Below, in pieces: positions 26,845 to 45,443 of a DNA stretch of 61,954 nucleotides. The DNA is from a virus (lineage: Duplodnaviria > Caudoviricetes), in the IMG/VR virus record IMGVR_UViG_3300037840_000222, positions 1-61,954 of that record; one strand, given 5' to 3'. A model generated the notes under the pieces. It was not told where the DNA came from, did no database searches, and saw nothing but the letters and a program-made list of their open reading frames with translations. The translations under genes were made by a program, and so were the position numbers. Position 1 is the stretch's first letter. The number at the start of each line of letters is the position of its first letter.

Positions 26845-27030
26845 ATGGCTAAAAGCAAAGGCGTCAGACTCGCCGTAAAAACCATGTCTGAAATTTTATC
26901 CAACCCTAAATCTACCACCAGTCAGAAAATAGGTGCGGCTAGAGTGATAGCTTTAATTTATGGTGGTAAAAAGAAAGCCATGAAAGAGAAGAAAGAGAAA
27001 AATACCGGGGTTTCCCCTCTGTTAAACTAA
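26845..27030 (+). CDS. 61-aa basic protein; lone plus-strand gene in the minus-strand block
   Basis: Has its own promoter and AGGAG RBS. Confidence 0.7.
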   Translation: MAKSKGVRLAVKTMSEILSNPKSTTSQKIGAARVIALIYGGKKKAMKEKKEKNTGVSPLLN

Positions 27031-27819
27031 TCTTGAAAGAAACAGATGGTGGCTCCTTTGGGGAATGTTTCATGTCCCATCTTTACATAGTATTTAACTT
27101 CGTCAAGAGCTTTCTCTTGTGAGATTGTTGACCAATATAAAACATCATCCCCCACTCGGATTGCAACATTATGTTTTGATGTCATATAAAGAACAGGTTC
27201 TCCGTCTGGAATCTTGTCGGCCCCGCCGATAGGCGTTCCTATTTCTTCTTCGCAGTGTTTTAAAGAGTAAGTTATCTTCATTTTACTCCTGTATTAAAAC
27301 GACAACCGTTCCTTTGGGTAACAGACGGTACTGTTGAATAAAGTTTTCTGGGTTTTGATCTTGTGGATTGGACCCGATTCCGGCAGGAGAATTAAACCGG
27401 AATATCCGCTCGCCTATACGAATTACAGGTCTATTAGAATCTGACTCGGCTAAAGTATATTCCGGCAGATTTTTAGCCTCTGTCCATTCCCCATAATTCC
27501 CTTTAGCGTGTTTAACAGAGATAAAGCATTTCATGAATAGCCCTCCGATTCCATTAATGGAATTATCTATGAACTTCAGTTTTATGTCCGTTTTTACAAA
27601 TAATAAACTTTGGTGGATTGGTTCCGTCTACTACTTTATGGATATTAACTTCCGGATCGGCTTGACTGATAGGATTGCATTCAGAGCAGAAAACAACATA
27701 TTTGATCCCTTGTTTGGTTTTAGTTCGGGTTCCGTTTTTCTTGTTCTTTCTGTTTATTCGAGGCATAAGCCCTCCATAAGAAAAGGGAAGTTCTGATCCT
27801 TCCCTTGCCCTAGCAGGAC

Positions 27820-28065
27820 TTAGATGGCTAGAGTGAGATCACCGAGAAGAGTGATATCCGTGCGGCTGCCGAAATAGCTGGCAGGCTTCACCGTTACCTG
27901 ATTGGCTCCCGCATTACCGGGGTGGCCCAGCTTTACAGCTTCACCACCAGTGGCCTTGACGTAAACGCGGCCATAGGAGGTCTGAAAGAATCCGCCGACC
28001 GGAACATCAGCGAAAGTGACGGACTTAGGAGCCGCCTTAGCGGCTGTGGTAAACTTAAAAGGCAT
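27820..28065 (-). CDS. hypothetical small protein
   Basis: 81 aa, GC-rich codon usage, flanked by conserved hairpin elements. Confidence 0.65.
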   Translation of the reverse strand: MPFKFTTAAKAAPKSVTFADVPVGGFFQTSYGRVYVKATGGEAVKLGHPGNAGANQVTVKPASYFGSRTDITLLGDLTLAI

Positions 28066-28704
28066 GTTTTTCTCTTTTCATTTGAAATTCTCTCTTTTGA
28101 GAGTGAGGTTCTGATCCCTCCATAAGACAGTCTAAATTAGACTGCCCTAGCAGGAATGAAGCTCTAATAACCTGAAATAACGCCGGATTGTAACTCTAAA
28201 TACCACGCACCTCCGTCATGGTCTTTTGTTTGGATATCGGCTTCCGCCTCTTCATTAAACAGAATTTTAACATATTGAAGATATCGTTCTGTTACTGTTA
28301 AATCTTCTTGTGTAGAAAGATCGAAACGATATTGATAATTAACGTAATAAGATAGGATACTTTTTCTTATCATTAATTCGATTTGTTCTCTGTTTGGCTG
28401 GCAATCATCTCTATAATCTAGAGCCAATTTAAGGCCATTTAACATCGGACGGAAAGTATTGCTAAAATCGTTGTCGCCTAAAACTATCGCTATTGTTCTT
28501 ATCTGTTCCACGTTTACCCCACCCAAACCCAATTACAAACACAACTTATTGTCTCATGAAGCGTCTGTTTTGGGTACTGTCCTTCCCCAATGTTGTCCCG
28601 CCTAAAACCGGCGGCCCTATTAGGAAAGATTCCGGAATAAGTGGCACAGGAAACGTAAATAGTTTGTTCGAGGTTCATCTGTCCTCCTATTCCATTAATG
28701 GAAT

Positions 28705-29808
28705 TTAAAACCCGCCTAGCAATTGAGTTTGACTGTTATTTTGATAAGTGCTGGCGGTAGTTTCATATTTGAATTTTGCTTCGAACTTATCCAGTTTACC
28801 TGCGACAGACCAAACGGCTTTTTCCTGTATGAGTGCCTCAATTGCCTCTGGGCAGTGCATAGAATGAACGAGATCAATTGCCGCCCTTGGCTCCATCCCA
28901 CAAGCTACGACAAACAGAGAGGCTAATGCTGTTCCAGTCCGACCATGACCACCTACACAAAACATTAACATTTTGTATTTATTGGTTTTGAGATAGTTTA
29001 CCAAATCTCTCCAAAATTCGCCTGGAAGATTAACCACCCCTCTATCCGGCCAGTCAAGAACAAATTCTCTATATGTCTGTCCTCCAGATTCCCATTTAGC
29101 CAATTCGGGGACAGGTAATTTGTGCTTTTTTCCTATTTCATTTCCAGTTAGATTGAGCACTATATCAAATTCGTTTAAACGGGTTTCGCAATCATACCTG
29201 CGGCCTACCCAAACACCCCACGTTTTCCCATCAATCATTTGTTTTGGTGGGTGGGAACAGTGTTTAACGTTAGACGTATAACTGGCGAAGCCGTTCGCTT
29301 TCCGGCCAGCAGGAGTTTCGTGCTTTTCAGCTAATGCCCAGGTATCGAATTTTTGTTTACAGTATATGCATTGTTGAGAACATTCTTCTTTAACCCATTT
29401 ACAATAATGGAGTTCTTCTTTTTGCTCATCCTTCTTTTCAGTCTGGATCATAGAATTATCCCTTTCATGGTTGGTGGCTTCCTGCATATACCAAGTTTCA
29501 AACTTACACCCGGTACAATGCCAGATTTCATATTCATCAATGTAAACTTGATGTTTTATTTGGTCTTGATCTGGCAGAAACTCTTTAGTCTCTAGATTCC
29601 AATCTTTTTCACATTTATCACAGTAACCCAGCCAAACACCGTGCCATTCATATTCATAACTTGCAGTTTGGCATTTTGGGCAAGGAGAATAGACAGCTTC
29701 GCCTACCCCCGCTTGTTCGACATCCGACTGTTCCATCATAGATAATTCCAGTTCGTTATGGGGCCGATCACAATCTATTTCTTCGCATTGACAGATTAAA
29801 TTATTCAT
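28705..29808 (-). CDS. Cys-rich N-terminus + PTP/dual-specificity phosphatase domain
   Basis: Cx5R loop FCVGGHGRTG, upstream DWPD loop, downstream E...Q. Confidence 0.82.
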   Translation of the reverse strand: MNNLICQCEEIDCDRPHNELELSMMEQSDVEQAGVGEAVYSPCPKCQTASYEYEWHGVWLGYCDKCEKDWNLETKEFLPDQDQIKHQVYIDEYEIWHCTGCKFETWYMQEATNHERDNSMIQTEKKDEQKEELHYCKWVKEECSQQCIYCKQKFDTWALAEKHETPAGRKANGFASYTSNVKHCSHPPKQMIDGKTWGVWVGRRYDCETRLNEFDIVLNLTGNEIGKKHKLPVPELAKWESGGQTYREFVLDWPDRGVVNLPGEFWRDLVNYLKTNKYKMLMFCVGGHGRTGTALASLFVVACGMEPRAAIDLVHSMHCPEAIEALIQEKAVWSVAGKLDKFEAKFKYETTASTYQNNSQTQLLGGF

Positions 29809-32344
29809 TAGGCTCCGTTTCTTCTTCTATTTCTGGATTACAGTTTTCACAATCGGTATTCTCGCAATCATGACAGTCTGTGTTTGTACAGTTACATCCA
29901 TTAGGGCAGCAATTTTCACAATCATGGTCATTACAGTCACAGCAGTTTGGGCACATCCAATCGGTATCGTGACAAGATATGCAGTTACAGTCGCAACCGT
30001 CGGGATAGCAGATACTACAGGTGTGGTCTTCACAATCGCATTTTGGAATAACTACCGCCGGATGGCAATCTTCGCATTCAGGATTCCCGCAACATTCATT
30101 CGTACAGCAAACTTTCACTGATGAAGAAGAGACTTGTTTCTTGTAAATCTCAGTCTTATATCGTTTCCGGTGTTCTTCTAGATACGTTTTCGGATCGAGT
30201 GGCTCGATTTTGAACTTTCTGGCTTCTACAAATCTTTTTTCTAACCCTATTCCACCGTCTTTTATAGCATCATAAAGAATTGGGGCTACGGGTAGAATAG
30301 AATGAATCGGATTATTCGCAGTATAAGTCATCTCATTTGGAGAGATAAACTTATTAAAAGTCCATCCCCCATTGTGAACAGAGTTTACCCCGTTATTCAG
30401 TGCTTCGAGAGCCGCTTGATAGTTTCCATCTACCAAAGCATTAAAAATAAGACCGGCCCAGCGGGCTAACAGAAACCATCTAGGCCCGCCGATGCTTGAA
30501 TTTCGCCAATCTTCTTTATCGAAAGAATCCATCGCGGAGACATATCTTTTCCTGGTTATACCGAAAAAAGTCCGAGGAAAATAGGTGTTGTATTCTGTTT
30601 CCCGGTCTCCGATACTCCCGGTGCCCAATATCGTGCGATCTCTTCTACGATATTCCCCTAACGTCGCCGTAACTAGAAGTCGATAACAGCACCCCATTGC
30701 CAGTCCTAACAAGAGATCGGCTTTTCCTAACCATTTAATCGTATGGTGGCACCCCGCCATCATGATATAAGCGGCATTTTCCCTTTTTACTTTAATCTTA
30801 CATCCTAACATAAATCCGCGCTTCATCGCGATTATATCAGGCGTAGATTTGGAGGATAGAGGCTCTAAAATCTCTCCGATCTTAGGCTCTCTAGATACTA
30901 GAATGGGGATGTTTGACAGGTAGGCATGAACAGCATAATGGCTGGCTAAACTACCTCCTGGGTGGTAAACGACTGATCCTTCAGGGAGGGTTTTTACCTT
31001 TTTCTCCCATTCTAGTAAGTCGCCTTTAGCTTCGACAATTGAAGTAACTGTGATTTTCTTAGGGATAAAATCAATCGAATCGGGGAGTTTCGGCCCGTTT
31101 CTTAGTTGGACATATTGTGGACTATATTCCTTGTCTTCCCTGATTACTAATTTCTGTTTGATGTTGCAAAAAACACAAAGTTTATGCGTGTATTCTCTCC
31201 ACAATATTTCAAGATATGGTGCCTCAGTTATCCCGGCATCTTTTAATAAATTACCCCAAATAACTATATGACTGTAGGGACTACCGATTGTAGATATTCT
31301 TATCGAATCTCTTCCGCTAGTGGCCCCGTCGTTACCTTGGCCGATAGACAACGATCCTTCTGTCCATACTCCGCTATGACTGGACTTGATAAAAGGCATA
31401 GCGATAATCTCCGCGTTTTCATCAGCCTGCCGAGTCTCTTTGACTATTTGTTGGGCTTCTTCAAGCGTGTTTACAGGCCGTGAATCAACAAATCCGTGTC
31501 TAGGAATAACAGGACAAGGACGGACGAATTTACCTATCAATTCTTGTAACTGTTTTTTGGTCTTTAACCATTCTATATCATATAATTTGTTCTCAGGAAC
31601 AGGGAAATAATGTTTACTTAGGGCCGACAATCCTCTAGTTTTTTGGGTTCGATAGTCGATTGGTGTTTGTGATAACGTTTTACGATCACCAACTTTTTTA
31701 CCTTTTGCGACAATCGTGTCACCACAAATATAACAGCCGCAACCAACCGTTCCGTAGATTTCAGCAGTTCCTTGAATAATCGAACTATCTCCTACGATAG
31801 CCCCTGACAAAAACGATTTATCGTTAACAGTGGTATGCTCTTCTATTTTTGAATCATGAACCAGGCTTTCCCCCCAAATAAGACAATTTGGACCCACTAT
31901 AGAAGATCCACATACAACGGCATTTTTGCCCACATTAGCCGACGCATCTACCTGAGAATCTTTATACACCCAGCCACCAGGGAGGTATCCGTTTGTATTT
32001 TTATGGCGGTGCCAATCTTCAAAAACAGATCCAGGCATAAGATCAAGAATTTTCTGGGTTGGCACATCCGGTTTTGTCTCTTTCATTTCTAGAATAGCAG
32101 TATTTTCCATATTTTCTTCCTGTAGTGGAATAGAAAAAGCGGGGTCAATTGGATAAAAGATTTGATTATCTTTTGGAGTAGCGTATTCAATCTTATACGG
32201 AAAGCCTACAGTCGTCCAGTCTTTTGAGATAGGTATTGATACGTCTACTACTGGTGCAGTGTAAAACCATGATTGCGGAATTTTTTCTTTAACCAGAAAA
32301 TAGGTTTTAGACAGTTTTTCAAAGTCATCTAATTTTAGAGCCAA
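29801..32344 (-). CDS. multidomain protein: hexapeptide repeat + PEP-synthase/PPDK-like ATP-grasp + His-swivel domain + Cys-rich tail
   Basis: GGWV...VGKNAVVCG repeats; FVRPCP...; GNDGATSG; VQLRNGP; HPGGSLASHYAVH; C-terminal CxCxxC repeats. Confidence 0.6.
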   Translation of the reverse strand: MALKLDDFEKLSKTYFLVKEKIPQSWFYTAPVVDVSIPISKDWTTVGFPYKIEYATPKDNQIFYPIDPAFSIPLQEENMENTAILEMKETKPDVPTQKILDLMPGSVFEDWHRHKNTNGYLPGGWVYKDSQVDASANVGKNAVVCGSSIVGPNCLIWGESLVHDSKIEEHTTVNDKSFLSGAIVGDSSIIQGTAEIYGTVGCGCYICGDTIVAKGKKVGDRKTLSQTPIDYRTQKTRGLSALSKHYFPVPENKLYDIEWLKTKKQLQELIGKFVRPCPVIPRHGFVDSRPVNTLEEAQQIVKETRQADENAEIIAMPFIKSSHSGVWTEGSLSIGQGNDGATSGRDSIRISTIGSPYSHIVIWGNLLKDAGITEAPYLEILWREYTHKLCVFCNIKQKLVIREDKEYSPQYVQLRNGPKLPDSIDFIPKKITVTSIVEAKGDLLEWEKKVKTLPEGSVVYHPGGSLASHYAVHAYLSNIPILVSREPKIGEILEPLSSKSTPDIIAMKRGFMLGCKIKVKRENAAYIMMAGCHHTIKWLGKADLLLGLAMGCCYRLLVTATLGEYRRRDRTILGTGSIGDRETEYNTYFPRTFFGITRKRYVSAMDSFDKEDWRNSSIGGPRWFLLARWAGLIFNALVDGNYQAALEALNNGVNSVHNGGWTFNKFISPNEMTYTANNPIHSILPVAPILYDAIKDGGIGLEKRFVEARKFKIEPLDPKTYLEEHRKRYKTEIYKKQVSSSSVKVCCTNECCGNPECEDCHPAVVIPKCDCEDHTCSICYPDGCDCNCISCHDTDWMCPNCCDCNDHDCENCCPNGCNCTNTDCHDCENTDCENCNPEIEEETEPNE

Positions 32345-32652
32345 TTTTGTTCCTCGGTTGAAAATATTCCATTAATGGAATTACAGTCGTTTCTCTTTCC
32401 TGTACCAGCTTTTTTGCCATTGTTTTAAGACATTTTGAGAAATAGACAAAACCACCACCATAAGGCCTATTCCCGCTCTGGCTGTCGAATTAGTAACATC
32501 AACTAATCCGTTCCATAAATCCATTAAATGGGGTTTTGCGTGATCTCTAAACCCCCTGGTGGTTTTTAGATAGTGGAATTTGATTGAGTGGTTTATATCT
32601 CTAATCATTAAAACCCTCCATTGGGCGCTCTGCGGAGCGCCCTAGCAGGGTT

Positions 32653-33126
32653 TTAATATCCAGTTTTGATGAAATGTAAAACTCGAAGTTTAGTTGCCTT
32701 GAACCGCCCTTTTCCAGTCTTAGCTGCTTTATACATATTTGAGTATTTTTCAGGCCATCCATACCCCCCATTGCAAGAATGTTCTTTGAGAAAGAACAGT
32801 CTAGCGGCTTGTTGATCCGTGAGACCGAGTATTTTCTTAGCAGGATCAAATGCATCGGGAAATCCATCGTACTTATCTTCGAAGAATCCATAATCCTTCA
32901 AAAATTGAATACCTTTTTTAGTTACAAGGAGGCAGGTTCCGCCCAAACAAGAGGTGATTTTACAAGGCGGAACAGGTTGCATTTTATGATCAACTCCGGC
33001 TACTTGGTCGTCTTCGTGAAAAGCACCCCAGTGTACCATGTTAAGCCGGTCTTTCTCTTCTTCCAAATATTTCAGGATTCGGAGTAGAATTCGTTCTGTT
33101 TTCTTTGATACTGCGTTTTTTGTCAT
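32653..33126 (-). CDS. hypothetical protein
   Basis: 157-aa ORF with an AGGAG RBS. Confidence 0.6.
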   Translation of the reverse strand: MTKNAVSKKTERILLRILKYLEEEKDRLNMVHWGAFHEDDQVAGVDHKMQPVPPCKITSCLGGTCLLVTKKGIQFLKDYGFFEDKYDGFPDAFDPAKKILGLTDQQAARLFFLKEHSCNGGYGWPEKYSNMYKAAKTGKGRFKATKLRVLHFIKTGY

Positions 33127-34086
33127 TTTGTTCTCCTAAAGAACGTTATAATTCTGTGAAAATATAACCGCCATCCATAGTAGATGGTTGTTCCCGCTAC
33201 GACCGTAGCGGTACCTATTTCGGGTCAGATATAGCACATAAAACCCCCTTAAGACAATCTGTTCTCTCCTAGCCAATAATCACCGTGAGATGAACAGACT
33301 TTATATCCTAGAACAATCTTGCCATCTTGTAAATCCCGTCTCCAGGCTCTGATTTCTTCTACTTTACCGGACAGACGGGTTCCGTTAATGGAAAAAAGAA
33401 CTTTTTGGCCGATATCGAACTTAAGTTTCATGAATAAGCCCCTATTTCTTTTTCTACTCTGAAAGCAACGGAAATTTTCTGTCCACATCCTGTACAAGTA
33501 AACTCCCTGCCACTATGAGTATGACCGGTGTTTACAAAATGTGAATGACACCCTTCTGAAGCGTTCTCACAACTTATGTGATAAAAATCCATAGTTGCTT
33601 TAAAATGTTAAGTTACCATAGTTTTCCTTCTCTATTCCATTAATGGAATTATTTATGAAGTTCATTACAGACAGTACAACGAAACCCGCCTGTTTTGTTA
33701 AAAGAGTTACGGGCGAAATTCATCACTCGAAGGAATTTTCCATATTTAAAATCTTGGTATGAATGGGCGCACTTACAGGGTTTAATAGCGGTCATACTCC
33801 TAGCTCCTCTGCGGTCAGTTTGGATATTTCTTTCTGTAAACTCTGACTGGTTAAAACGATTTCGCACTCCATCATTGTGATAGCTAAAACTAATACATGG
33901 GATATTTCTCGGATTGACGCCCCTTGGAGAAGATATGAATGAATTGTATTTTTTAAGGCTTTGATGGCTTCAGCTTCCAAGTTTAAAGCTAAATCCGTGT
34001 ATTTATCTCTATTAAAAAGCGAAAGATTTTCTTTTTCCATAAGCACCTCATCGCGGTACATAGTTTGTATGTACCGAGTCAAGCGA

Positions 34087-34455
34087 TTAGAATGAAACTA
34101 ACTCCTTCCTGGGATGAGGTTTTTTAACAATCGGTATTTCGGTTGATAGATTTTCATCCCTACGGGTTTGTTTGGCGGCCACTGTGGCCGCGCCATCAGT
34201 GGTCAGGGTTAATAAATCGGCGTGTATGGACAGAAAAGACAGCACTTTCTGTCCATTTGTAAATAAGAATTTTACTACGTCGGCGGGGATATTGATTGCC
34301 GACCGGATATAACCCCGGATTTGGAAATCGCCATCATAGGAAACCATAAAAGTAGGTTCAGCCGATGGCTTTTTGTTTTTCCATAGAGTTGCTTCAAGCT
34401 CTTTGACATAAGTTTGAAGTTCCTCGGCGGACATTCCAGTTGTATCTTTAAACAT
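34087..34455 (-). CDS. hypothetical protein, distant paralog of 42306-42713
   Basis: Shared coiled coil ELEA.L.KN..P followed by TF...G...I.G. Confidence 0.6.
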   Translation of the reverse strand: MFKDTTGMSAEELQTYVKELEATLWKNKKPSAEPTFMVSYDGDFQIRGYIRSAINIPADVVKFLFTNGQKVLSFLSIHADLLTLTTDGAATVAAKQTRRDENLSTEIPIVKKPHPRKELVSF

Positions 34456-34948
34456 ATTTTCTCCTAAATTCCATTAATGGAATAGATTTAATCTCGGTCG
34501 TTTTCGTAAACTCTGCGGGCGTTTCTTTCTAGTGCCTTTTGCCGTTTGGGATTGTTTTCGTCGTAAGAGAAATCTTCCCTAGATTCCTCTTCATATCTTC
34601 TTAATGATTCGTTTACATTACCAAGATTAATTCTATTCTCCTAAATCCCTAATTCTTCGTTTGTTGGTGTAGGCCCAATATGATGTCCTAGATGTATTTT
34701 AGGGGATAGACGATCAGGATTAGCTTCTTCAGATTTCATCTTTCCATACCATCCTATCGTCTCAAGGCATTGTTTCAAATATTCGATACTTGAAGCAGCT
34801 ATACAGGTTTCCAAAACATCGTGCATACTACCACTATCTGCCGTCCCGTCAAGTAGACAAATAAGCCCTCCTATTTGGCGCTGTTGTTTTTCTGTGGATG
34901 TTTGTAGAAATTTTTCTATATAAGATAGAATATGATTCTCTTCCATAT

Positions 34949-35650
34949 CTACTCCTTTCTCCACACAATCGCTGTGGCGTTATCTTGTAAACCATTGTTT
35001 TCAGTTATAGTTAGTAAATCTTTAGCTATTGGCGTTCCTTCTCCTGTTAGAGAAGAGATAATTTGTTTACGTACATCATCATTTTGATGGCTAGGATCAA
35101 ACAAGCCATCTGTAGCCACCAATATAATAGCCGGATTGGGGATAGAGTAAATCTCTGGCTCGCTTATAACTACGGGTTGTAATTCCCTATCTCCCAAAGC
35201 CCTACCCATTTGCAGTCCGGGACCAGAGAAATACTTAGAAGCATACCCTCCGTAGACAAAACCACCTCTATCCTCCACAGCTTTGGCTTCTTTCTGGTTT
35301 GTTCTTACATTGTGGTCTGGACTATAGTGGATATCTCCCTTATCATCAATAACAATAACAGGAGAATCGCCTATGATGGCGATATCTGCCTTGTTTTTAC
35401 TCACCAATACTGTGGACAGAGTAGAACCGTCTGTAAACTCGCTTGTTTGATAAGCGAGATTTTTTAAAAAGTTGAAATTTTCCGGAAATATATTCATCAA
35501 TTCGAAATAGTGATGGATATACTCTGAGCACCGGCTACCACCATGCCCATCAGCTACCATCATGATGGCAAATCCAGATATAGACTCGCAGGAGTAATAT
35601 CTGTCTTCCTGATATGGCCTTGGGCCTTGAAGTGTTCCGCTGGTAATCAT
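34949..35650 (-). CDS. PP2C/PPM-family Ser/Thr phosphatase
   Basis: G.RPYQED, ADGHGG, GST, GDS, RALGD, ATDGL and DNAT motifs. Confidence 0.92.
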   Translation of the reverse strand: MITSGTLQGPRPYQEDRYYSCESISGFAIMMVADGHGGSRCSEYIHHYFELMNIFPENFNFLKNLAYQTSEFTDGSTLSTVLVSKNKADIAIIGDSPVIVIDDKGDIHYSPDHNVRTNQKEAKAVEDRGGFVYGGYASKYFSGPGLQMGRALGDRELQPVVISEPEIYSIPNPAIILVATDGLFDPSHQNDDVRKQIISSLTGEGTPIAKDLLTITENNGLQDNATAIVWRKE

Positions 35651-35676
35651 TGAACAGACCTTTTCATTAATGGAAT

Positions 35677-35892
35677 TTAGATTTCTTCTAGCTGGCAAGA
35701 ACGGTGACGACGACTATAAGAGTTTACCAATTCCCATTTGTTATCTTTTAGCTCGTACTTATCTACGTTGTTGGCTCCGCTTCGACCAGATGGGCTATTT
35801 AAGTAGTCTAACGCTTCGATAGAACTGTTGGTTAGATTCGGAGACCCGTATCCTTCGTATTCGTATTCATCGTACATAATAAACAGAATCAC
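35677..35892 (-). CDS. 71-aa hypothetical protein, copy 2 (paralog of 8494-8709)
   Basis: Same length from GTG and near-identical sequence. Confidence 0.75.
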   Translation of the reverse strand: MILFIMYDEYEYEGYGSPNLTNSSIEALDYLNSPSGRSGANNVDKYELKDNKWELVNSYSRRHRSCQLEEI

Positions 35893-35949
35893 AAAATTCT
35901 CCTCATCCAAACAGATAGGTTTAATATCTGCTTGGTCAAAAGAATTTTC

Positions 35950-36320
35950 TATTCACCAAGTAGCCGTAGATGGGAATAGTTGAATAGAGTGACAGAACGC
36001 CTAATAGAACAGACTAAAATAAAGCCGGTCTGCTGGCCATATCAGAACAAGGGACATTTATTGATAATCTGTTCAATAAGACGTTCTAACGATGCAGAAG
36101 TGGTTAATGGAGAACAGAATAAGATCGATTTCCCGGTCGCATACAGGCGACCAGCAATATTCTGCTCTCTATTAACCACTCCCTGCCCTATTTAACGTCC
36201 ATTACCAACTACCGAGTAGGTTTTTACTCTATTCTCCGATTGCTAGACATTACTCTAGATTTCATCCGGGGATGAATAGATTAAAACCCGCCACCAGAAT
36301 CTTAGGCAGCTACTCTGCCT
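35950..36320 (-). ncRNA. putative structured RNA
   Basis: Imperfect inverted repeats 35994-36013/36068-36087 and 36099-36121/36158-36180; no credible ORF. Confidence 0.4.
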
Positions 36321-36646
36321 TTCCATTAATGGAATTAGTAATGAAACCAAGAATTTGTAACTTCGAGAAATACTTGTTTCTCGCGGCCAGCCTTTTTATT
36401 TTCCATCCACTCCCGGTTAGCTTCGTGATTCCGCTTACTTTTCTTTGGCCCTTTCCATCCACCGCGCTTAGGATGGCGCATTTTCATTGTTCCGTTCATT
36501 TCTACCCTCTCTTCTTCGGCCTCTCCCATTTAAGAGCGGGCTGGCCGTTGGTTAGTTTAAACTCTCCTACTCTTGTTCCACGTAGGAGTCTAGCGTCTCT
36601 TTTTCTTTGGGAAATAGTTTTAAAGATTCGTTTCATGAACAGGCTC

Positions 36647-36910
36647 CTATGGTAGTTCGAATACGTGAAAAACTAGACTGCCGCCATCTAAGAAATACGA
36701 ACCAAGATAATCTCTGTCAGCTTCGGGTATTGGATGGCCTGTACCGAAGATTTCAAACTGTCTATCTACCTTCGGAGCTGTCGGGTCAACTTCCACCCAA
36801 AGGCAGGGAATGTTAAATTGTGCGGCGACGTGCAATATAAAGCCGTCTTTCGGGATGGCTATCGTTTGACGGCCCGTAGTTTCTAAAGGAAATTTCCAGA
36901 TTGCTTTCAT
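36647..36910 (-). CDS. conserved small phage protein
   Basis: IWKFPL...P....LHV..Q...PCLW.EVD...GTGH...YLG...LVFHVFE, a pattern common in phages. Confidence 0.7.
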   Translation of the reverse strand: MKAIWKFPLETTGRQTIAIPKDGFILHVAAQFNIPCLWVEVDPTAPKVDRQFEIFGTGHPIPEADRDYLGSYFLDGGSLVFHVFELP

Positions 36911-36949
36911 CGTGTTCCCCTCTCTATTCCATTAATGGAATTAAAACAA

Positions 36950-37550
36950 AAATAGAACGCCTATAGGGATCGGGGAATAGATTTAGGAAAAAGTGGTATG
37001 TGGCACGAAGCCTTCCACCGGGTTATCTATACGCCGACCCTTAGAGACGTTCTAGTTAGGAATAGAACGGCGATATGTGGGTAATAGGTTAGCGTATACT
37101 CTTAAGTAGTAAAGAGGCCCGGCAGGGAAGTTCTCAGTGCAAATCTGAGTGCGCTCCTAACCAATGGCTAAGGTTAGATCAAGAATGCAGATAGACGTTA
37201 GTACTAACGGAACATTGTGAAATCCTGCATCTATTACCCACATATCGCCGTTCTATTCACAGAATGATGGCGAACAGAGGAATTTTAGCCCTTGCGGAAC
37301 GCACCTCTGTTCACCGGAGCTAGTAGCTCCCTAAGATTCTGGTGACTTAGCAGACCAATAAGCGGCTACCCTCAAGCTCAGACTCTTGTCTAGCTCTCCT
37401 TACGTGGATATGATATGGTCTAACAAGTCCACCCATTCCCTAACGTAACCCTTTGGGACTATGCCCGGTTATGCTTCTTTCCATAAGTACCGCGCTAACC
37501 TATTGAGTGCTGCCGACCGGACCCCGCAAGCGGGATTCGACGGCAAACGC
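36950..37550 (-). ncRNA. putative ~600-nt structured RNA
   Basis: Perfect 28-bp inverted repeat 37060-37087/37231-37258 plus many hairpins; extended -10 TGGTACACT at 37551-37559 on the minus strand. Confidence 0.55.
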
Positions 37551-37757
37551 AGTGTACCACAACCGATTTTGCCGAGAGTCCGAAAAATCGCGCAAGTGCT
37601 TTGTTTTCAGCGCGAAAAAAATTCTTGACAGGTTTCGCCGGTCAAAACCGGCGGAGGCGTAAATCGTTGAAAACACGGCACTTAAGTTTTGAAAAGTTTC
37701 GTGAAGATTCGTAAAGCACTGCGCATATAAAGGACGGCACTCGATTTAATTTTTTCC

Positions 37758-37787
37758 TTGACAGAAAAACGGAGACTGTGGTATAAT
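37758..37787 (+). promoter_or_regulatory. consensus sigma70 promoter, probably leaderless
   Basis: TTGACA-18 nt-TATAAT with TG; ATG follows after a 6-nt spacer. Confidence 0.85.
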
Positions 37788-37793
37788 TATTGC

Positions 37794-38471
37794 ATGAAAA
37801 TTAAAAAAGAAGTGTTTAAGATCATAAACTATGATGATTTTAAACTATCCTATTATGTTTATGCTTGGATTCGAAATAAAGACTGGTTGTACGTTGGTCT
37901 GTCTAAAAACGTCCATCAGAGAATATTCGACCATAATGTAATCGGAATAGAAGAACCTTTTCAAATAACAGACAAAATTTTATTGTTTAATTGCTCTAGT
38001 AAAGACGAAATGTGTCTATTAGAGAAGCAGTTAATTAGAGAAAATAAACCGAAATACAACAAATACGGATATATTATTAAGGAAAAAATACCTGTACATA
38101 AGCAAAAAAGTAAAGAAAAACTAATTGAAGAACCAATTATTAAAGACAATAGCGTATCATTGAAAACTATAACGAAAGAAACTGCATCAAAAGAAATTAA
38201 TTATTTTGACCCTTTATGGGAGAGCAACAAAAATTTAGTAAAGGAATATTTCCACTTGCAAAAAGTATTACCATTAGTTGATTCTCAAACACATATTATA
38301 ATGGATAATAAGATATCGTCCAAAATAACTAAGCCTCGTATTAAAATATCTTTGGCAGATAAACAGGCAGCCATGCGCGAAAGATATACTCGACAAAAGT
38401 CTGTCCCGATTTTTTCTATTCCTGTCTCTTTGAGCCAGAATGATCAGCCTATAATAAAACCAGCCCCCTAG
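37794..38471 (+). CDS. GIY-YIG nuclease-domain protein
   Basis: YVYAW...LYVGLS..V.QR..DH...E..LI...KPKYN; AT-rich relative to its neighbours. Confidence 0.75.
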   Translation: MKIKKEVFKIINYDDFKLSYYVYAWIRNKDWLYVGLSKNVHQRIFDHNVIGIEEPFQITDKILLFNCSSKDEMCLLEKQLIRENKPKYNKYGYIIKEKIPVHKQKSKEKLIEEPIIKDNSVSLKTITKETASKEINYFDPLWESNKNLVKEYFHLQKVLPLVDSQTHIIMDNKISSKITKPRIKISLADKQAAMRERYTRQKSVPIFSIPVSLSQNDQPIIKPAP

Positions 38472-38487
38472 ATATACTAAGGGGCTG
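38461..38487. terminator. hairpin at a convergent gene junction
   Basis: CAGCCCCCTAG...CTAAGGGGCTG. Confidence 0.5.
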
Positions 38488-38937
38488 AGAAATTCCATTA
38501 ATGGAATAGAGTTAGCGACACACTGGATTCTTTGGTGGCCACGGTTCGAACCGCGAGAAGTTTTTCTGTAATGGTGGTTTTTGTTGTTCTTTTAGATAAT
38601 CATTAACTGTTGGCAGAGCATCACGGAAACAATGGCTATGGCGAAGAATAATACAACCATGAGCAACTATCCAACGTTTTCTGGTAATTGAAAAATAGAC
38701 TCTCACTTTCATCCAATCGCCATTACGGGTTTTTACTCTATTCACTCAGCACACTCCTATTCTGATTACCAAGTTGATAAGACACGGTAATGTTGTTAGT
38801 GATCTCTTGATTAATAGACTGAAAACCACCATAGAGATGATAGAGATCTTGTGAAACGGTTTGGATACTTGTTTAAACAGTTTATCTATCATCGAACCTC
38901 CTTTGCCGCCTATAGACGGCAGAATCAGAAAATGTCA

Positions 38938-39100
38938 GTTATAACCGTCATGCAACGGCCTAGCTACAGCCTAGCCGTTGTATCGGTTTCGATGCTTTGG
39001 CTAGGCCATAGCCTAGCCGCTGCCTAGCTAAAAGTGTTTTGGCTAGGCCAACAAACTAACCTAACCTTAACTCTACTTACCTTCCCTTACCTTAACTTTA
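38938..39100. repeat. iteron-like array A (GCCTAGC repeats + 5-bp periodic tract)
   Basis: GCCTAGC at 38958, 38969, 39011 and 39022; inverted at 39000 and 39042; then CTAAC/CTTAC-type pentamers. Confidence 0.7.
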
Positions 39101-39397
39101 CAGCGCCGGTTAAAAGCGGTAACGGTTTTAACTAGCGGAATCGCTGTCCTTTAAAATCGTCCGCTGCGGATTCGACCCTTTCAGGGAATGAGTCGCATTC
39201 GTGAGCTTTCCGTGCGATTTAAAGCGTTCGGCGTTCGAAATGACCTGGGCTACATACTTTTCCGAGAATCGCTCATATCGAATCGTGGCGACAAAAACTC
39301 ATTTCTTCACCGAACTTCATCGAACTTTACAAACCATGATGGCGCTCTCCTGAGCTATTCCATTAATGGAATAGATTAAGACAACGCCATAAAACAG

Positions 39398-39432
39398 AAA
39401 AAACCCTAAGAGGCTGGTTTTCCTCTTAGGGT
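39398..39432 (-). terminator. intrinsic terminator
   Basis: 11-bp stem ACCCTAAGAGG/CCTCTTAGGGT followed by a U-tract on the minus strand. Confidence 0.7.
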
Positions 39433-39999
39433 CGTCGCCGCTGTTCCATAAACCCTCCATAAGCCATCATAGGGAATAGAAAAACCATATGATGGCCTAG
39501 CAAGGTTTATAGGCTTATTTTTACTCCATGAAAAACTTGAACAGAATACCCTTGTTTTTCATACTCTCTTACGGCATTAGTAGCTACTTCAACATCTCTA
39601 TACCAATCAACACCCTCGCAATCATTTTTACATGTAGCCACTACATAAAATTTCTCTTCCATAATCCCTCCACTCGGGGACAGAGATTAGTCTGTCCCCT
39701 GATTGATGGATTACTTATACTGACCGCAGGATATCTGAACCTCGTTCTTTGTTTCAGACGTTCCCTTGACCGTTGGGTCGGCGTTTTCATCACAAGTCAC
39801 AATAAAATCTGTTTGGCTCAGTTGATGGATGTGAAAGCGACGGGAAAAACGCTTGTTCTGTGCCTCAACGTGAAGCGAGTACATCAGAAAAAACAGAACC
39901 AAACCCGCGATTGTGATTACTGCCCACGTTCCTGCTTTTTTCATATTAAAACCCTCCATAAGAGAACAGACTGGTTTTTTCTGTTCCCCTAGCAAGATT

Positions 40000-40467
40000 T
40001 TAGAATATACTCTTACCGTTCCATGAGTTACACGGAACTTGCTGTTTATGGAGAATGTTGAGTTCGTCTTTGCAGTCGGCGTCTGCCTTCTGCCAGTCGG
40101 CGTCTGCCTTCTGCCAGTCGGCGTCTGCCTTCTGCCAGTCGGCGTATGCCTTCTGCCAGTCGGCGTCTGCCTTCTGCCAGTCGGCGTCTGCCTTCTGCCA
40201 GTCGGCGTATGCCTTCTGCCAGTCGGCGTATGCCTTCTGCATTCCTACAGGAAGTTCGCCTTCAAACGGACGGAAATTTGTTAGCCGAATTACTCTTTCC
40301 TGTTGTGGTTTATTGTTTAAGATATATTGAATTCGTTCTTCAACAGGAAAAGCCAACGGCTCAATTTGAACTTCATGATGGCAACACCATGCAATTTTGG
40401 AACGGGTATTTGCCCATACTTCGCGGCATTCTTTTGCCGCTTGTTCTATTTGATCGTTTTGGATCAT
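40000..40467 (-). CDS. early protein with heptad repeat (QKA[Y/D]ADW)x8
   Basis: Starts MIQNDQ after GGAGGG; in-frame 21-bp tandem repeat. Confidence 0.75.
   Translation of the reverse strand: MIQNDQIEQAAKECREVWANTRSKIAWCCHHEVQIEPLAFPVEERIQYILNNKPQQERVIRLTNFRPFEGELPVGMQKAYADWQKAYADWQKADADWQKADADWQKAYADWQKADADWQKADADWQKADADCKDELNILHKQQVPCNSWNGKSIF
40073..40240. repeat. 21-bp tandem repeat, 8 units
   Basis: CAGTCGGCGT[A/C]TGCCTTCTGC repeated contiguously. Confidence 0.95.
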
Positions 40468-41272
40468 AGTAAAACCCTCCACTGGAAATTCCATTAATGG
40501 AATTCCCTAGCAAAATTTTACTTGGGATGAGCCAATTGATAGATGGCCCAACGTTTCGCTAAACCTTTGGAAATTGGCGTCTCAGATTCGGCTCTGATAA
40601 TCCGAATCAATTGCTGGCGTCTCGCACGTCTTGCTTTTTTCTGTTCAGTCATAAAACCCTCCCATAGAGCTAGTCCATTAAGAGAACAGACTAGCCTAAT
40701 GGCAAGATTTTAGCCAAATAGATGCTCTGGTATCCAAAGCAAAATATCATCGGCCATCATTGCTCTATAACCTCCGCATGGACAAAAAAACATGCCGCTA
40801 AATGGAACACTTCCGCAAGATTTTCCGCATTGTGGGCATGTCTTAGGGTTTTCGTTTGAATTAGGAAAACCCGCCACTATAAATTCAGGCGTAATACTTC
40901 CCTTGCCATAAGCCATCTGTTTACCTCATTTCGATTGAACTGGTTTAGTCATTCCGGCATATGGACAGGCAACGGAACAGTGATAACATGGGCAGCTATC
41001 GGGATGTTTATAGCAATTACAAACAGGCTTACGCTTTTGCTTTTCTCTGTTCATCTTACCTCCAAACCTGTGAACGGTCTTTTGGTTGTGGTTTACCACA
41101 AACGAAGCATGTTGTCTTAACCAGTCTCCGATTGCGTCTATGTTGATTCTTCCAAAGTGAGCCGCAAGGCTTACACTGGCGTTTTCCTAATCGCATGGTG
41201 GAATCGAGTTTTGTCATAAATCCTCTAATTAGGACACTCTATTCCATTAATGGAATGTCCTAAGTGCAAGAT

Positions 41273-41719
41273 TTACCCGGTATATAGAGTATCAGCATTT
41301 TCTGTTTTACTAGTTCTTAAAAACTTTGTCATATTGGCGGAATTCAGATATACATGTGCCGTTGCTGGTTTTCCGCAAAATGTTCCGCTCTGAACAAGGG
41401 CAAAACTGTCCGGTAAAAATTTGAGAGTGACGTTGCCAACATGGTCAACGGCAAGGTGTTTATCTTCCGAATTCACCAAACCACGGTTAGCGATATCGAA
41501 AAACGGATGAGTGGATGTTGGCATTGGTTGACGTTGCATGGTGGCCAGATTCACAATGGCATACTCGTCCCGTGATCCGCCGTCCCAGTAGCTATTGATA
41601 TTCTTACCATTATCAGGAAATGCAGAGAGAAAAGCATTGTGTTTCTTATAGCTTGGAAACGCCAATTGAATTACTCTCTTCACTTCCGGCGCTATCCTCA
41701 AAGTGATAGTTTGAAGCAT
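41273..41719 (-). CDS. hypothetical early protein
   Basis: 148 aa with an AGGAGGG RBS; NSYWDGGSRDEY and FCGK segments. Confidence 0.7.
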   Translation of the reverse strand: MLQTITLRIAPEVKRVIQLAFPSYKKHNAFLSAFPDNGKNINSYWDGGSRDEYAIVNLATMQRQPMPTSTHPFFDIANRGLVNSEDKHLAVDHVGNVTLKFLPDSFALVQSGTFCGKPATAHVYLNSANMTKFLRTSKTENADTLYTG

Positions 41720-42305
41720 AAAACCCTCCTGAATACCCTATTGCATTGGGTGTTTCATTGGACGTGCCCTCGTGCTGTGATGTTTTCGCATCAATTCTAT
41801 GCAAGCCTCTTCAGGTGAGGAGTAAAGTTCCCTGTGGGGTGAAGTGCCGTCTTCCATATACCAACAAAATTTGCTTATATAAACCATTCGCCCCAAATAA
41901 GGGACTAAAATCTCTGTTTTGAGTAAAATCAGATTACTGGTACTATAATCATAATCTGCACTCGTATTACGAACTTCCGCTGTCGCATAGATATAGTCTT
42001 CCATAAACCCTCCACTAGGCAGATAATTCCATTAATGGACAGATTATCTGCTAGGTGCAAGGTTTATTGGGCAAACTTGCGCCGGTACTGCTCTTTCCAA
42101 TCCCTGATGGCAAGTTCAGGGCGGGAACCTGAGCCACAGATACTGTCTAGATTGTTTCCAATCCAATCTGTAGTAACATAGCATTGCCATGTCTTACCGC
42201 ATTGTTTCAGATTATACGTCAAACTTCTGAAAAGTTTTCGTCTGTTCTCCATAAATCCTCCACAAAATAGGGGAACGATATTCTGTTCCCCTAGTCTAGC
42301 AGGAT

Positions 42306-42713
42306 TTACTTGCCGTTGTTCTTGCCGAACTTGGCAATGTTCGCTTCCGTGGGATGCTTCACTGCTCCTGTGGTATCGGCAACACGGAGCAGGCGCTTGT
42401 TTTCGGATGCTGGCGTGTCTTTTTCGGCCTTAAGAGCCAAAAGAGCCGAATGCTTTTTCATGAATACACTGATCGGCGCGTCATCGGCCAATGGCTTGCC
42501 AGTCAATGCTTCAATCAATCGCGGCATCTGTTCCGAGTACACGGTCAACGGGAACGTGGTATTGATCCCGTAGATACCGATTGCGCCTTTGTCTTCGCCA
42601 ATGCCGAACGTGACGGCTTTGGGCTGGTTATTCTTTGCCAGTTGCGCTTCTAATTCGGCAATGCGGGCTTGCATTTTCTGTACTTCAGTCAATTGCTGAT
42701 TGTTATTACTCAT
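42306..42713 (-). CDS. hypothetical early protein (coiled coil + KG.I.IYG...FPLTVY motif)
   Basis: Starts MSNNN after GGAG; GC-rich codon usage. Confidence 0.7.
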   Translation of the reverse strand: MSNNNQQLTEVQKMQARIAELEAQLAKNNQPKAVTFGIGEDKGAIGIYGINTTFPLTVYSEQMPRLIEALTGKPLADDAPISVFMKKHSALLALKAEKDTPASENKRLLRVADTTGAVKHPTEANIAKFGKNNGK

Positions 42714-44150
42714 GTCTATTCTCCATAAATCGCTGATTTTAAAGGGATTCAGCCAACCCTGATTAGAGGCATTGAATGCCTCAAGGGAAACAGATGAAAA
42801 ACTGTTTGACGCGGGACTATCCCGTTGGTCTGGATGACAGTATAGCAATTCTCTGTTCCCCCTGAGATATTCAATTCCATTAATGGAATTGAGGTTTTCT
42901 CTGTTCACTTAGCAATAGCTTACGCGGTACATACCGCGCTATCTGGCTGATAACCAGCGTAACACAAAATCTGCGAGTGTTTCCGTTGATTCCCGTTCTC
43001 TTTTCGGCCATTTCTTTATTTTCATCTAATTCCCTTTCCTTTCAGCCAGATACAGAGCGTACTCTAATTCCTCTTGTTCTCTGTTCAGCCTGTTCTTGAC
43101 GGCTTGATTGCCGCTAATGTCTATCCGATATTGGAGTGAATCAATTCTGTTCACTAACTCTTGTTGGTTCATCGCTATGCACCCCGTAAGCTATTGCTTT
43201 GGTTTTGCTTGTTCTATTCACCATTGACGGCTGCTATCATTCCCGCTACGGTTCATCTCCGTTGAGTACAGAGGGGAAAGTTATAAGCGAATTCCATTCC
43301 GTCTTTGGTTTCGGGGGTTTTCTCTCCCCCTGTGTTGGTTACTATCAGCCATACTCTGAAAACTAGTCCGATTGCCGTCTATTCAGGCTGCTTTCCCGGT
43401 CATGGCTGTTAGCTCTCGGTACTTGCTCGGTGATCGTTTTCAGCGGCTTGTTCTGTTCGCCGTTCCCGCTTGCCGTTTGGAATCTGCCGCGAACGAATGC
43501 AGGTTCTCATGATCGCGTTTCAGAGTCAAGTTAAGAATTGTAAAGCACCGTAAGTCGTTGAAAACAAAGCGAAAAAACCGTGAAAAAAGTTTTGCGGCAG
43601 GGATTCGCGGCTATTTTTTAGGTTTAGTTATACTGTGTGGCATACAGTATTCGTTCGAACGTTCGTTCGGTTGTGTTTCCTGACCAAACCGCTGGTTATA
43701 ACCGTCATCCCCAATCGCAATAACGGCAATCGCAAACAAAAACCGTCACTTTTAACACAGAAAACTGAAAAGCTAAGTGCTTTAGAATCAACATCCGATG
43801 CCATCTGCTCACCGTATAGCTGAACGTCATAGTAGTTGTTCTCTTTCCCTCTCTATAATCTATCCCTAGGGAGTAACATTAACTTCTAGATAGCCTAGGG
43901 GGAGGGGGAAGCCCCTTTGGGTTGGGAGGGGAGGGGTTTAGTGACCTGGCGATACCTCCTTCCTTTTCAACCACTTACAAGCCATACAATAATAATCCTT
44001 AATTTCCCACCACCTTTTTCTTTTTAGGGACTCCAAAACCATAGGTACCCTTTGGAACCCCAAAAGGGACTCCTTTTTAATAGAGGGTGCTACCTACGGA
44101 AAAATAACCTCTCCCGGCCACCAAATGTTAATTAAATAATAACATGAGCA

Positions 44151-44250
44151 TTATAACCGGCATGGCCATAGCCTAGCTACGGCCTAGCTATAGCCTAGCG
44201 TAGTAGAGATAAGGTAAGTAGAGGTAAGAGAAGTTAAGTTTAGGTAAGTA
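44151..44250. repeat. iteron-like array B
   Basis: GCCTAGC at 44171, 44182 and 44193 (11-bp period), then GTAAG/GTAGAG pentamers. Confidence 0.7.
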
Positions 44251-44339
44251 CCGGCCATTAAGAAAAAATAAAATCTTTTCTTTAAAACCGCACACCGCGC
44301 CTCTAGAATACGATATAGTATATAGAGGGACAGATAAAC

Positions 44340-44730
44340 GTAATCTGAGCGCCCGATCAGGCTAATGTAAGTGCCTGGGCCTGCCGTGTGAACGAAAACC
44401 AGCGAAACACCTGGGGACGTGGCCGGGGTCAAACTAATATGTGATACAGCGGGTTAACCGTATCACGCATAAGGCTTTACACATATGGTATTGTCTTAGC
44501 GGCCTGCGATAGAAATAGATTTAGGGTATATAAACCGGCTCGGTACCCTACTCCTCGGAGTCCGGATTAATTTGTAAGCCCAGTCTGACCGCTTACTGAA
44601 GTCTTCTGGGTATCGCTTTCAGGAAATCGTTCCCACTGCCCGGTGGGTGATCGCAAACAGCCGGTTCTGTTAGAATGCCGCTAAGGGTGATGCGAGCCTA
44701 TGCGCTTTTAATAGAACCGGAAGGGATTAG
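44340..44730 (+). ncRNA. putative large structured RNA
   Basis: Stems 44661-44672/44709-44720, 44495-44503/44677-44685 and 44467-44476/44695-44703; no credible ORF. Confidence 0.5.
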
Positions 44731-44742
44731 AATTTAAAGTTT

Positions 44743-44804
44743 TGCGGTTTAGCATCAGTCGGATAGATGTGCAGTTGGCCGTGGGTTCGACTCCCACAAC
44801 CGCA
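44743..44804 (+). ncRNA. tRNA-like RNA lacking an anticodon arm
   Basis: Acceptor TGCGGTT/AACCGCA, D arm GCATC/GATGT, T arm GTGGG-TTCGACT-CCCAC; only 10 nt between the D and T arms. Confidence 0.6.
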
Positions 44805-44857
44805 ATTAGTTTAACCGATGCCGGATGAGAAAGAAGTTACCCGGACGGTTTTCGATT

Positions 44858-44936
44858 TGCTGGCGAGTGGAACGGATTACCATCCAAGTCTCATAAACTT
44901 GGGATAACGGGTTCGACTCCCGTGCTTCAGCAACCA
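44858..44936 (+). tRNA. tRNA with CAT anticodon (Met or Ile2), atypical acceptor stem and D arm
   Basis: CCAAGT-CTCATAA-ACTTGG anticodon arm; ACGGG-TTCGACT-CCCGT T arm; encoded 3' CCA. Confidence 0.72.
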
Positions 44937-45443
44937 AAATTCCATTAATGGAAACGAAGCGAAGACCGGATCGCATCTGGTCGTGGTGGGTCGCACTCGC
45001 CGTTCCTAAAACGTAGTGGGGATCATTGATCCAGCCCCTCCCTCTAGTGAGGGCTGGTGTTACCAACAATCTACGATACGGGATTGGGCCTGAAAAACCC
45101 AATCCGCTAAACGGCATACACGCGGTATGATAGGGTATAAATTTTTAGCGGCGCTGAAAAATGAAGGCGGGGTGGCATCCCCTAGCGACTCAGAAGAGTA
45201 CTAAAGCGCCCACAGCCGCTAGACGCGATTAGGAGAATAGATGGATGGTTACGAGTATCAAATACCTTCGATCAGCAGCAACTCAATAACATTGGGTACG
45301 GACGAAGGGGTTCACAAGGAGCAACTTTCTAAACCTCCGAGTGAAGTGTCTATTCGAATTCTAAATTCAATCATTTACGCAAGAGTTCCAGAGTCTAACT
45401 TTTACCGTGACGCCTTAGTAGATTAATTCCATTAATGGAAAAT

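Follow-up and report, generated by a model that had tools for sequence, protein, structure and literature searches.

A candidate family of intercistronic RNA hairpins that bury Shine-Dalgarno sequences in a soil-metagenome phage

For the rpmI-rplT gene pair, at +52 nucleotides (nt), a review of coupling describes an upstream ribosome that unfolds the structure without occluding the downstream site (PMC12548453). The early polycistronic mRNA of phage T7 carries five signals of the kind cut by RNase III (PMC3867540), and in Cluster K mycobacteriophages a 13-bp motif, GGGATAGGAGCCC, known as SAS, lies at gene starts, where the form called ESAS adds 17-bp inverted repeats upstream; both are associated with a subset of non-structural genes, and a role in translation is suspected (PMC3203893). 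Here we examine a hairpin that is repeated on the minus (mRNA) strand of IMGVR_UViG_3300037840_000222, a virus record of 61,954 bp (GC 0.43) that was analyzed in its entirety and is hereafter called the window. A preliminary description, made from the sequence alone, had proposed that the repeats represent a cis-regulatory RNA family, and this proposal is supported by strand specificity, by covariation, and by the raised predicted cost of opening the ribosome-binding sites concerned. These predictions and comparisons support the view of the repeats as one family of RNA hairpins, acting in cis, in which the Shine-Dalgarno (SD) sequence is buried.

Copies of the hairpin and their common fold

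All eleven copies listed in the preliminary description were found on the minus strand at the coordinates it gave. A covariance model (R1) was built from these eleven copies, as that description had advised, and run without filters on both strands of the window. It returned ten canonical copies at 46.9-58.1 bits and a divergent copy (match 39658-39736) at 23.1 bits, with the next best match in the record at 17.1 bits. As R1 was trained on these same copies, the informative part of the result is the gap in score down to everything else. The pattern TGCTAG-N10-40-TGGAGG occurs seven times, always on the minus strand, compared with 0.11 occurrences expected (100 shuffles). The copies are listed below, with gene starts taken from a crude gene call made for this analysis (z, z-score of the predicted fold; gap, distance from stop to start codon).

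42250..42308, minus strand: c42253, from the UAA of gene 42306-42713 to the AUG of gene 42064-42252; R1 52.1 bits, fold -28.9 kcal/mol, z -6.82, U of the stop paired with A of the start, gap 53 nt.
42002..42066, minus strand: c42005, before gene 41738-42004; R1 49.1 bits, z -6.88, gap 59 nt; 14-bp palindrome with one mismatch (42027) in the apical part.
41215..41275, minus strand: c41218, before gene 41056-41217; R1 52.6 bits, z -5.09, gap 55 nt; exact palindrome (41242) in the apical part, SD AGAGG, larger 4x4 internal loop.
40650..40712, minus strand: c40653, before gene 40518-40652; R1 48.0 bits, z -6.29, gap 57 nt; 3-nt insertion 3′ of UGC.
40465..40520, minus strand: c40471, before gene 40000-40467; R1 54.4 bits, z -5.11, gap 50 nt; the apical stem-loop is an exact palindrome (40489).
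39942..40002, minus strand: c39948, before gene 39711-39944; R1 58.1 bits (top score), z -5.47, gap 55 nt.
39660..39713, minus strand: c39665, divergent, before gene 39507-39662; R1 23.1 bits, z -4.46, stop UAA paired; lower stem and SD retained, without the G.G mismatch.
39447..39509, minus strand: c39450, the last of its operon; R1 56.1 bits, z -6.49, gap 57 nt; its AUG opens a 7-codon open reading frame (ORF) only.
32606..32655, minus strand: c32610, before gene 32381-32608; R1 46.9 bits, z -7.39.
28114..28157, minus strand: c28114; R1 54.9 bits, z -4.78; upstream stop UAG (28164-28166) outside the stem.
27764..27822, minus strand: c27767, before gene 27563-27766; R1 51.5 bits, z -4.14; in the lower stem an A-U pair is replaced by G-C, a compensatory change (columns 9/76).

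Eighteen copies were folded, the 11 in the window and seven from relatives, and all energies given are nearest-neighbour predictions. One architecture was obtained in 18/18 folds, with z-scores of -4.1 to -7.4 and, for each copy, none of 200 dinucleotide shuffles as stable. The lower stem (P1) pairs (U)AAAYCYU with AGGRUUU(A) over 8-11 bp and contains the upstream UAA, the GGAGG of the SD and the A of the AUG. Directly above P1 there is a 1x1 G.G mismatch in 15 of the 18 folds, formed by the G of UGC and the second G of GGAGG, and in 12 the irregular zone is complete, comprising the G.G, one C-G pair and one bulged U. The conserved internal loop of the preliminary description therefore exists, but it is small. 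Above the bulge the helix resumes as UAGG... paired with ...CUUA and leads into an upper stem whose sequence varies from copy to copy while its pairing is always kept; in this respect, and in the burial of the SD by the lower stem (18/18 folds), the earlier account was accurate. In four copies 3-5 extra bases follow UGC and produce a larger internal loop or additional pairs. The stop codon, which had been placed before the 5′ arm, actually lies within the stem, as the UAA that ends the upstream gene has all three of its bases paired in P1, to UUA, in 10/11 window copies.

Covariation of the pairs exceeded that of all 500 shuffles. The 11 window copies have 87.9% paired cells and five pairs in which both sides change, and with 19 copies aligned to the model these values become 93.2% and six pairs (26 cells); no shuffle matched in either case (0/500). 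Sliding the 3′ partners of the 19-copy alignment by 1-3 columns dropped pairing to 40-63%, although an alignment that has been fitted to the model leans towards structure. The sequence of P1 is nearly invariant, and its support comes from U-G/C-G/U-A alternation together with two compensatory cells (G-C in c27767 and U-A in c28114). In 18/18 copies the sense strand was more stable than its complement, by a mean of 8.75 kcal/mol, and 49 of 397 pairs are G.U. On these folding predictions, the structure belongs to the mRNA strand.

Other identities for the element were considered and rejected. The spacing of the arms ranges from 17 to 40 nt, which speaks against a promoter, and there is no GG at -24 as in a sigma-54 site. 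An intrinsic terminator was rejected because a terminator scan flags only 2/11 upper stems, and an integron attC-like site because there are no R-box sequences and the Pfam scan of 31 + 67 ORFs yielded no integrase.

The preliminary description had counted about ten early genes behind the hairpins; in fact its eleven copies lead to nine genes and a 7-codon ORF, the remaining copy having no start codon, and the status of the genes as early is inferred from position only. That c28114 lacks an AUG was confirmed, there being no start codon within 12 nt 3′ of its SD, and so was the 14-bp palindrome in the apical part of three copies. The list was not complete, however, as a divergent structural copy had been overlooked:

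35890..35951 (hairpin 35893-35948), minus strand: additional divergent copy, before the GVG-start gene 35677-35892.

This copy is alike in plan and different in sequence. Its lower and upper stems are of 11 bp each, the lower one containing GAGGAG, and between them lie a G.G, an A-U pair and a bulged A, so that the irregular zone is retained even here. Its fold of -27.2 kcal/mol (z -5.83) was matched by none of 200 shuffles and it was also recovered by a descriptor scan; an Rfam miRNA-like chance match of 22.9 bits overlies the hairpin. The ~380 nt upstream contain no ORF with a start codon. The stretch 35950-36330 (minus strand) holds a long near-perfect hairpin at 36093-36187, just upstream of the copy, for which only weak miRNA-precursor-like matches were obtained from Rfam (30-32 bits), and it is possibly a non-coding RNA or some other structure with a regulatory role. 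A further junction is a possible weaker relative:

34038..34089, minus strand: weaker, tentative copy, flanked by genes 34087-34455 and 33792-34040.

Here a G.G again lies opposite the SD, the stop-to-start gap is 46 nt and the opening cost (see below) is 18.4 kcal/mol; the z-score of the fold is just -1.66, with 16/200 shuffles equally stable. The junction before gene 41273-41719 (41720-41760, minus strand) reads ...AAACACCCAAUGCAAUAGGGUAUUCAGGAGGGUUUUAUG, has an opening cost of 12.4 kcal/mol and, from its sequence, looks like a decayed hairpin copy without the upper stem. A 10-mer, GGATCAGAAC, is common to the loop of c27767 (27783-27806) and the sequence directly after the SD of c28114 (28104-28113), and may be the trace of an old rearrangement.

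Predicted closure of ribosome-binding sites and the proposed opening of the hairpins

The cost of opening a ribosome-binding site was defined as the predicted energy needed to free positions -18 to +2 around the start. For starts behind hairpins the median was 17.4 kcal/mol (7.6-24.4, n=10), whereas the remaining gene starts (n=71) had a median of 6.9 kcal/mol (1.0-18.4; Mann-Whitney p = 5e-6). A direct pair joins the U of the stop codon to the first base of the AUG in 6 of the 11 window copies and in 4/8 copies of the relatives described in the next section (L074c, L073, L075, and L071), while c28114 and the copy at 35893 have no upstream stop codon within the lower stem. Each copy fills the entire intergenic region, and the stop-to-start gap of 44-59 nt in the ten copies that possess a start codon resembles the +52 nt of rpmI-rplT. 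The small-gene operon extends from 42713 to 39426 on the minus strand. Its first gene has no hairpin and an open site (opening cost 5.3 kcal/mol), and its 11 junctions consist of eight hairpins and three short junctions (1, 9, and 18 nt), none being both long and unstructured.

This arrangement points to translational coupling, a third mechanism beyond the RNase III cleavage or opening by a protein that the preliminary description had suggested. In our preferred reading, to which we give slightly less than an even chance on the basis of the modeled folds, the hairpins would be intercistronic locks that are opened by a ribosome terminating on the stop codon in the stem. A stop in the stem opposite the start, a first gene without a hairpin, and other junctions that are either a hairpin or ≤18 nt are all predicted by coupling. 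The lower stem pairs the UAA and the 5-6 nt that follow it with GGAGG and the first base of the AUG, and consequently a free 30S subunit should rarely initiate. When a UAA occupies the A site, the next ~8-10 nt lie within the mRNA channel. The 5′ arm of P1 and the irregular zone would enter the channel of a ribosome reaching the UAA, and with that arm in the channel P1 would be expected to be open and the upper stem still folded. The SD and AUG would be freed 44-59 nt downstream, outside the footprint of the terminating ribosome and beside it in space, so initiation on the next cistron might fall to the same ribosome or to a fresh 30S subunit. Translation of the small genes would then proceed as a relay in which the first gene alone has an open ribosome-binding site, and the G.G mismatch and bulge above the SD helix may act as a hinge that keeps this helix meltable and uncoupled from the upper stem. 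Further points in favor of coupling are that a Pfam scan of 31 + 67 phage ORFs identified no recognizable nuclease regulator or RNA-binding regulator and that the arms are conserved next to a diverged downstream protein (see below).

Several observations weigh against coupling. Three of the 19 copies (c28114, and L074a and L070 in relatives) have no start within 12 nt of the SD and yet keep the consensus, scoring 54.9, 56.1, and 37.7 bits, respectively. The copy at 35893 follows the ~380 nt free of start-codon ORFs, so no upstream ribosome could open it. Coupling alone also leaves the conservation of GCUAGG/CUUAUGG and of the G.G plus bulge unexplained, and a library screen reported in the review of coupling found a negative correlation between coupling and structure immediately following the upstream stop (PMC12548453).

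The startless copies and the leader copy at 35893 would make sense as processing sites. A host double-strand-specific nuclease of the RNase III type could cut at the G.G/bulge, leaving the upstream mRNA with a 3′ hairpin and freeing the SD at the new 5′ end; we judge this unlikely, and it could coexist with coupling. The helices span 19-26 pairs in the 18 folds, or about two helical turns, as in RNase III signals (about 20-22 bp), the ideal substrate being 22 bp (PMC3867540). The same review states that loops, bulges, and mismatches at the target result in single-strand cleavage and stabilizing 3′ hairpins (PMC3867540), and the hairpins of the window have an irregularity in a fixed place, be it the G.G, pair and bulge (12/18 folds) or, in most of the others, a larger loop, and it is kept in the copy at 35893. 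Processing, however, does not need a stop codon paired with the start region. Moreover, the T7 early junctions that we folded for comparison (a clear hairpin in two of five) display the reverse pattern, the SD lying outside the hairpin and the upper stems being conserved, and R1 reached at most 8 bits on T7 nt 400-8200, that is, no sequence relation.

The G.G facing the SD also recalls RNA thermometers of the ROSE type, in which case an SD helix weakened by the mismatch would melt with temperature and set the translation of the early genes. The microROSE core consists of U9-A22, G10.G21, C11-G20, and U12-A19 (PMC9016746), to which the local geometry here (U-A, G.G, C-G, bulged U, U-A) is parallel. 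A hallmark of ROSE is the anti-SD motif U(U/C)GCU with imperfect SD pairing in the 3′-proximal hairpin (PMC3669281). Among the 19 copies the motif is present as UUGCU in eight, whereas seven have CUGCU, which is outside the motif, three have UUGCC or UUGCA, and one has none; the G.G that lies opposite the SD in ROSE occurs in 15/18 folds and in the copy at 35893. We nevertheless consider a thermosensor highly improbable, as no Rfam ROSE family matched at its gathering score across the window or at E <= 10 within 27000-43500, opening would by prediction still cost 7.8-21.7 kcal/mol at 45 °C (10 starts), and these are single hairpins between cistrons, not the multi-hairpin 5′ untranslated regions of heat-shock genes.

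Two features close the small-gene operon after its last hairpin:

39426..39449, minus strand: 7-codon ORF MEQRRRP following c39450, with its last three codons in the 5′ arm of the terminator.
39402..39433, minus strand: intrinsic terminator closing the operon, a 12-bp stem followed by a T run (terminator scan).

The arginine codons of MEQRRRP are CGG CGA CGA. By analogy, the layout of this ORF and the terminator (39433-39402) is like that of a leader-peptide attenuator, in which translation could decide read-through. This leads to a more elaborate proposal, which we regard as doubtful, whereby the hairpin would be a portable module of stop, ribosome-binding site and start with a ROSE-like G.G core, the operon would be a relay, c39450 would gate the terminator via MEQRRRP, and the startless and leader copies would double as processing or protein-binding sites. 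If the terminator gate were true, ribosome traffic on the early genes would decide transcription read-through into the next gene block.

Relatives, other repeats, and genomic setting

The preliminary description had recommended searches of Rfam and of related phages. No Rfam family matched the element, either at gathering scores over the whole window or at E <= 10 over 27000-43500, and copies were identified in five contigs and one provirus. The five are soil-metagenome contigs found with a strict pattern, in which R1 confirmed seven copies (34.6-56.1 bits), with three in L074 lying within 1.1 kb; the strict pattern was found 0 times in IMG/VR viral contigs and 0 times in GTDB species genomes. 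A loose pattern gave 38 viral loci with one real copy only, in the provirus record (L013/L070), where it is single, scores 37.7 bits and lies directly after an anti-restriction gene. Seven genome matches of a relaxed pattern in GTDB were dismissed as chance (at most 19.5 bits). The relatives are few and short, and contigs of two soil DNA runs over 27500-43499 had no informative variation within hairpins, the sole difference being a low-depth site (40498) near a contig end. The full-text literature that was searched contained no description of the element, which is no proof that none exists. We propose the hairpins as a candidate new RNA family, absent from Rfam.

That the contigs represent related phages is evident from the nucleotidyltransferase of L073, which is 73-78% identical to that of the window. 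L071 encodes a homolog of gene 32381-32608, 34% identical over 80 residues, that is preceded by a hairpin in the same way as c32610, and both hairpin arms are identical to those of c32610 despite the divergence of the protein. Such conservation exceeds the needs of SD pairing and, together with the conserved irregular geometry and the presence of one site common to many genes, would be expected if a trans-acting RNA-binding protein of the phage or the host read the GCUAGG/CUUAUGG zone with its G.G and bulged U. The protein would lock or open all these ribosome-binding sites together, as a translational regulon. We consider an operator of this kind quite unlikely, since there is no candidate protein, as the Pfam scan of the 31 + 67 ORFs detected no RNA-binding or nuclease domain, and the small genes adjoining the hairpins have no PHROG match.

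The relatives also bear on whether the repeat acts at the level of DNA, as a portable stop-RBS-start linker (RBS, ribosome-binding site) for recombining cassettes, a selfish repeat, or a binding site for a factor of the GCTAGGC arrays. L073 and L075 share an identical 56-nt element flanked by different genes on both sides, and three copies from one metagenome have a nearly identical upper stem. Additionally, iteron-like arrays at 38946-39042 and 44159-44199 repeat the GCTAGG core, and the PeSL cassettes of T4-type phages provide a precedent (PMC2839356). A role in DNA is, in our estimation, very unlikely, because the G.U content and the sense-strand advantage of 8.75 kcal/mol favor RNA, the conserved arms are only ~14 nt, and no integron-type recombinase was seen in the Pfam scan of 31 + 67 ORFs. 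The metagenome contigs, furthermore, break at 14-bp palindromes and not at the hairpins.

Several other repeats were observed. The 14-bp perfect palindrome, TTCCATTAATGGAA, is present 36 times in the window (31 exact, five with one mismatch) vs. 0.04 expected, and in both transcription blocks; examples are at 27549-27562, 28690-28703, 32367-32380, and 42875-42888. Junctions typically take the form TAA-palindrome-T(A/C)GGAGG-N-ATG; within long genes there are at least five copies. The palindrome is absent from the relatives L071-L075, a search for it together with flanking sequence yielded 18 viral loci, virtually all of them with a single match, and several metagenome contigs end or diverge at its copies. 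The iteron-like GCCTAGC/GCTAGGC arrays, whose GCTAGG core is common to the 5′ arm of the hairpin, lie in the stretches 38946-39083 and 44159-44250 and flank the small-gene operon together with the upstream non-coding stretch; at 44172-44194 three units are 11 bp apart. Adjoining each array is a GGTAAG-rich repeat, the two being mutually inverted, with 31-nt arms that are 81% complementary. The 7-mer GAACAGA occurs 58 times, both strands taken together, vs. ~8 expected (100 mononucleotide shuffles, maximum 17); some of its copies lie shortly after start codons, several of which are followed in this way, and two upper stems also contain it. At 40073-40240, in gene 40000-40467, are eight tandem 21-nt units (97% matches) encoding a 7-residue repeat, where metagenome contigs break.

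The sequence of the record is present in two soil-metagenome DNA runs. Its minus-strand gene block runs from ~43 kb down to 1 and opens with small genes without PHROG match, followed by phosphatases and then by replication genes (family A polymerase, clamp loader, RNA ligase, Erf, exonuclease, primase-helicase, clamp, and sigma factor). The plus-strand block, from ~45 kb, includes lysozyme, terminase, and portal genes, and the divergent region carries a tRNA at 44743-44805. Free-standing GIY-YIG and HNH endonuclease genes, one of which sits inside the minus-strand block on the opposite strand, are located as follows:

37758-38471, plus strand: endonuclease gene.
56641-57342, plus strand: endonuclease gene.
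59596-60243, plus strand: endonuclease gene.
8894-9433, minus strand: endonuclease gene.
1519-1905, minus strand: endonuclease gene.

Among isolated phages even the nearest are distant: the terminase shares 26.6% identity with that of a Tunturiibacter phage, the polymerase ~41% with those of Enc34 and BcepNazgul-like phages, and megablast of 27000-45000 against isolated phages gave zero matches. In IMG/VR the relatives of the DNA polymerase have only 33-34% identity, and the repeats of the window are not among the top 10-mers of these relatives. A protein of 847 residues had no relatives in the metagenome or viral collections, and a search with the L073 nucleotidyltransferase returned nothing useful.

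Comparison with described systems

The T7 early signals resemble the hairpins of the window in that both recur between the cistrons of a polycistronic early mRNA, span about two helical turns and are interrupted by an internal irregularity. In T7, however, the SD is 3′ of the hairpin and the upper stems are conserved, whereas here the SD is within the hairpin and the lower part is conserved; given this difference and the lack of an R1 match, the likeness is one of layout and not of family. As in ROSE, the anti-SD arm pairs imperfectly with the SD and a conserved G faces a G of the SD, the arm reading UUGCU or CUGCU in most copies, and we read the G.G, by analogy, as perhaps a shared means of keeping an SD helix meltable. 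Unlike ROSE, they are single and intercistronic, have a long stable upper stem and one extra bulged U, and are predicted to be much too stable to melt at physiological temperature.

SAS and ESAS likewise place a conserved SD motif before starts, and about half of them have imperfect inverted repeats with a variable center. Their arm sequences are unrelated to those found here, so that the layout alone is comparable, and in layout they differ: the ESAS repeats are upstream of SAS with a 4-13 bp spacer, while in the window the hairpin uses the SD as one of its arms, has a paired variable part and takes in the stop. The PeSL elements are also small conserved stem-loop cassettes that flank small non-essential early genes and are possible recombination points (PMC2839356). 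They combine a promoter and a terminator and are transcriptional, and neither pattern is found here, save for the two of 11 upper stems flagged by the terminator scan. Neither SAS/ESAS nor PeSL has the SD as a hairpin arm or includes a stop codon.

If coupling is true, a single RNA device would let the phage set in what order and in what proportions many host-takeover proteins are made, and the hairpin would represent a compact natural part for building coupled operons; if it is instead a site for a nuclease or a protein, it would define a new post-transcriptional regulon. For coupling itself the closest cases are rpmI-rplT of E. coli, f1 genes VII-IX, and MS2 coat-lysis, in which the downstream site is similarly closed by pairing with sequence that the upstream ribosome traverses (PMC12548453). 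The known cases are individual unrelated structures, in contrast to the one conserved cassette that is reused here about a dozen times and is common to related phages, and in contrast to them the stop codon here pairs directly with the start region. Hairpins that mask an SD, and coupling, are thus known as one-off structures; what is new is a conserved module reused at about a dozen junctions across diverged soil phages.

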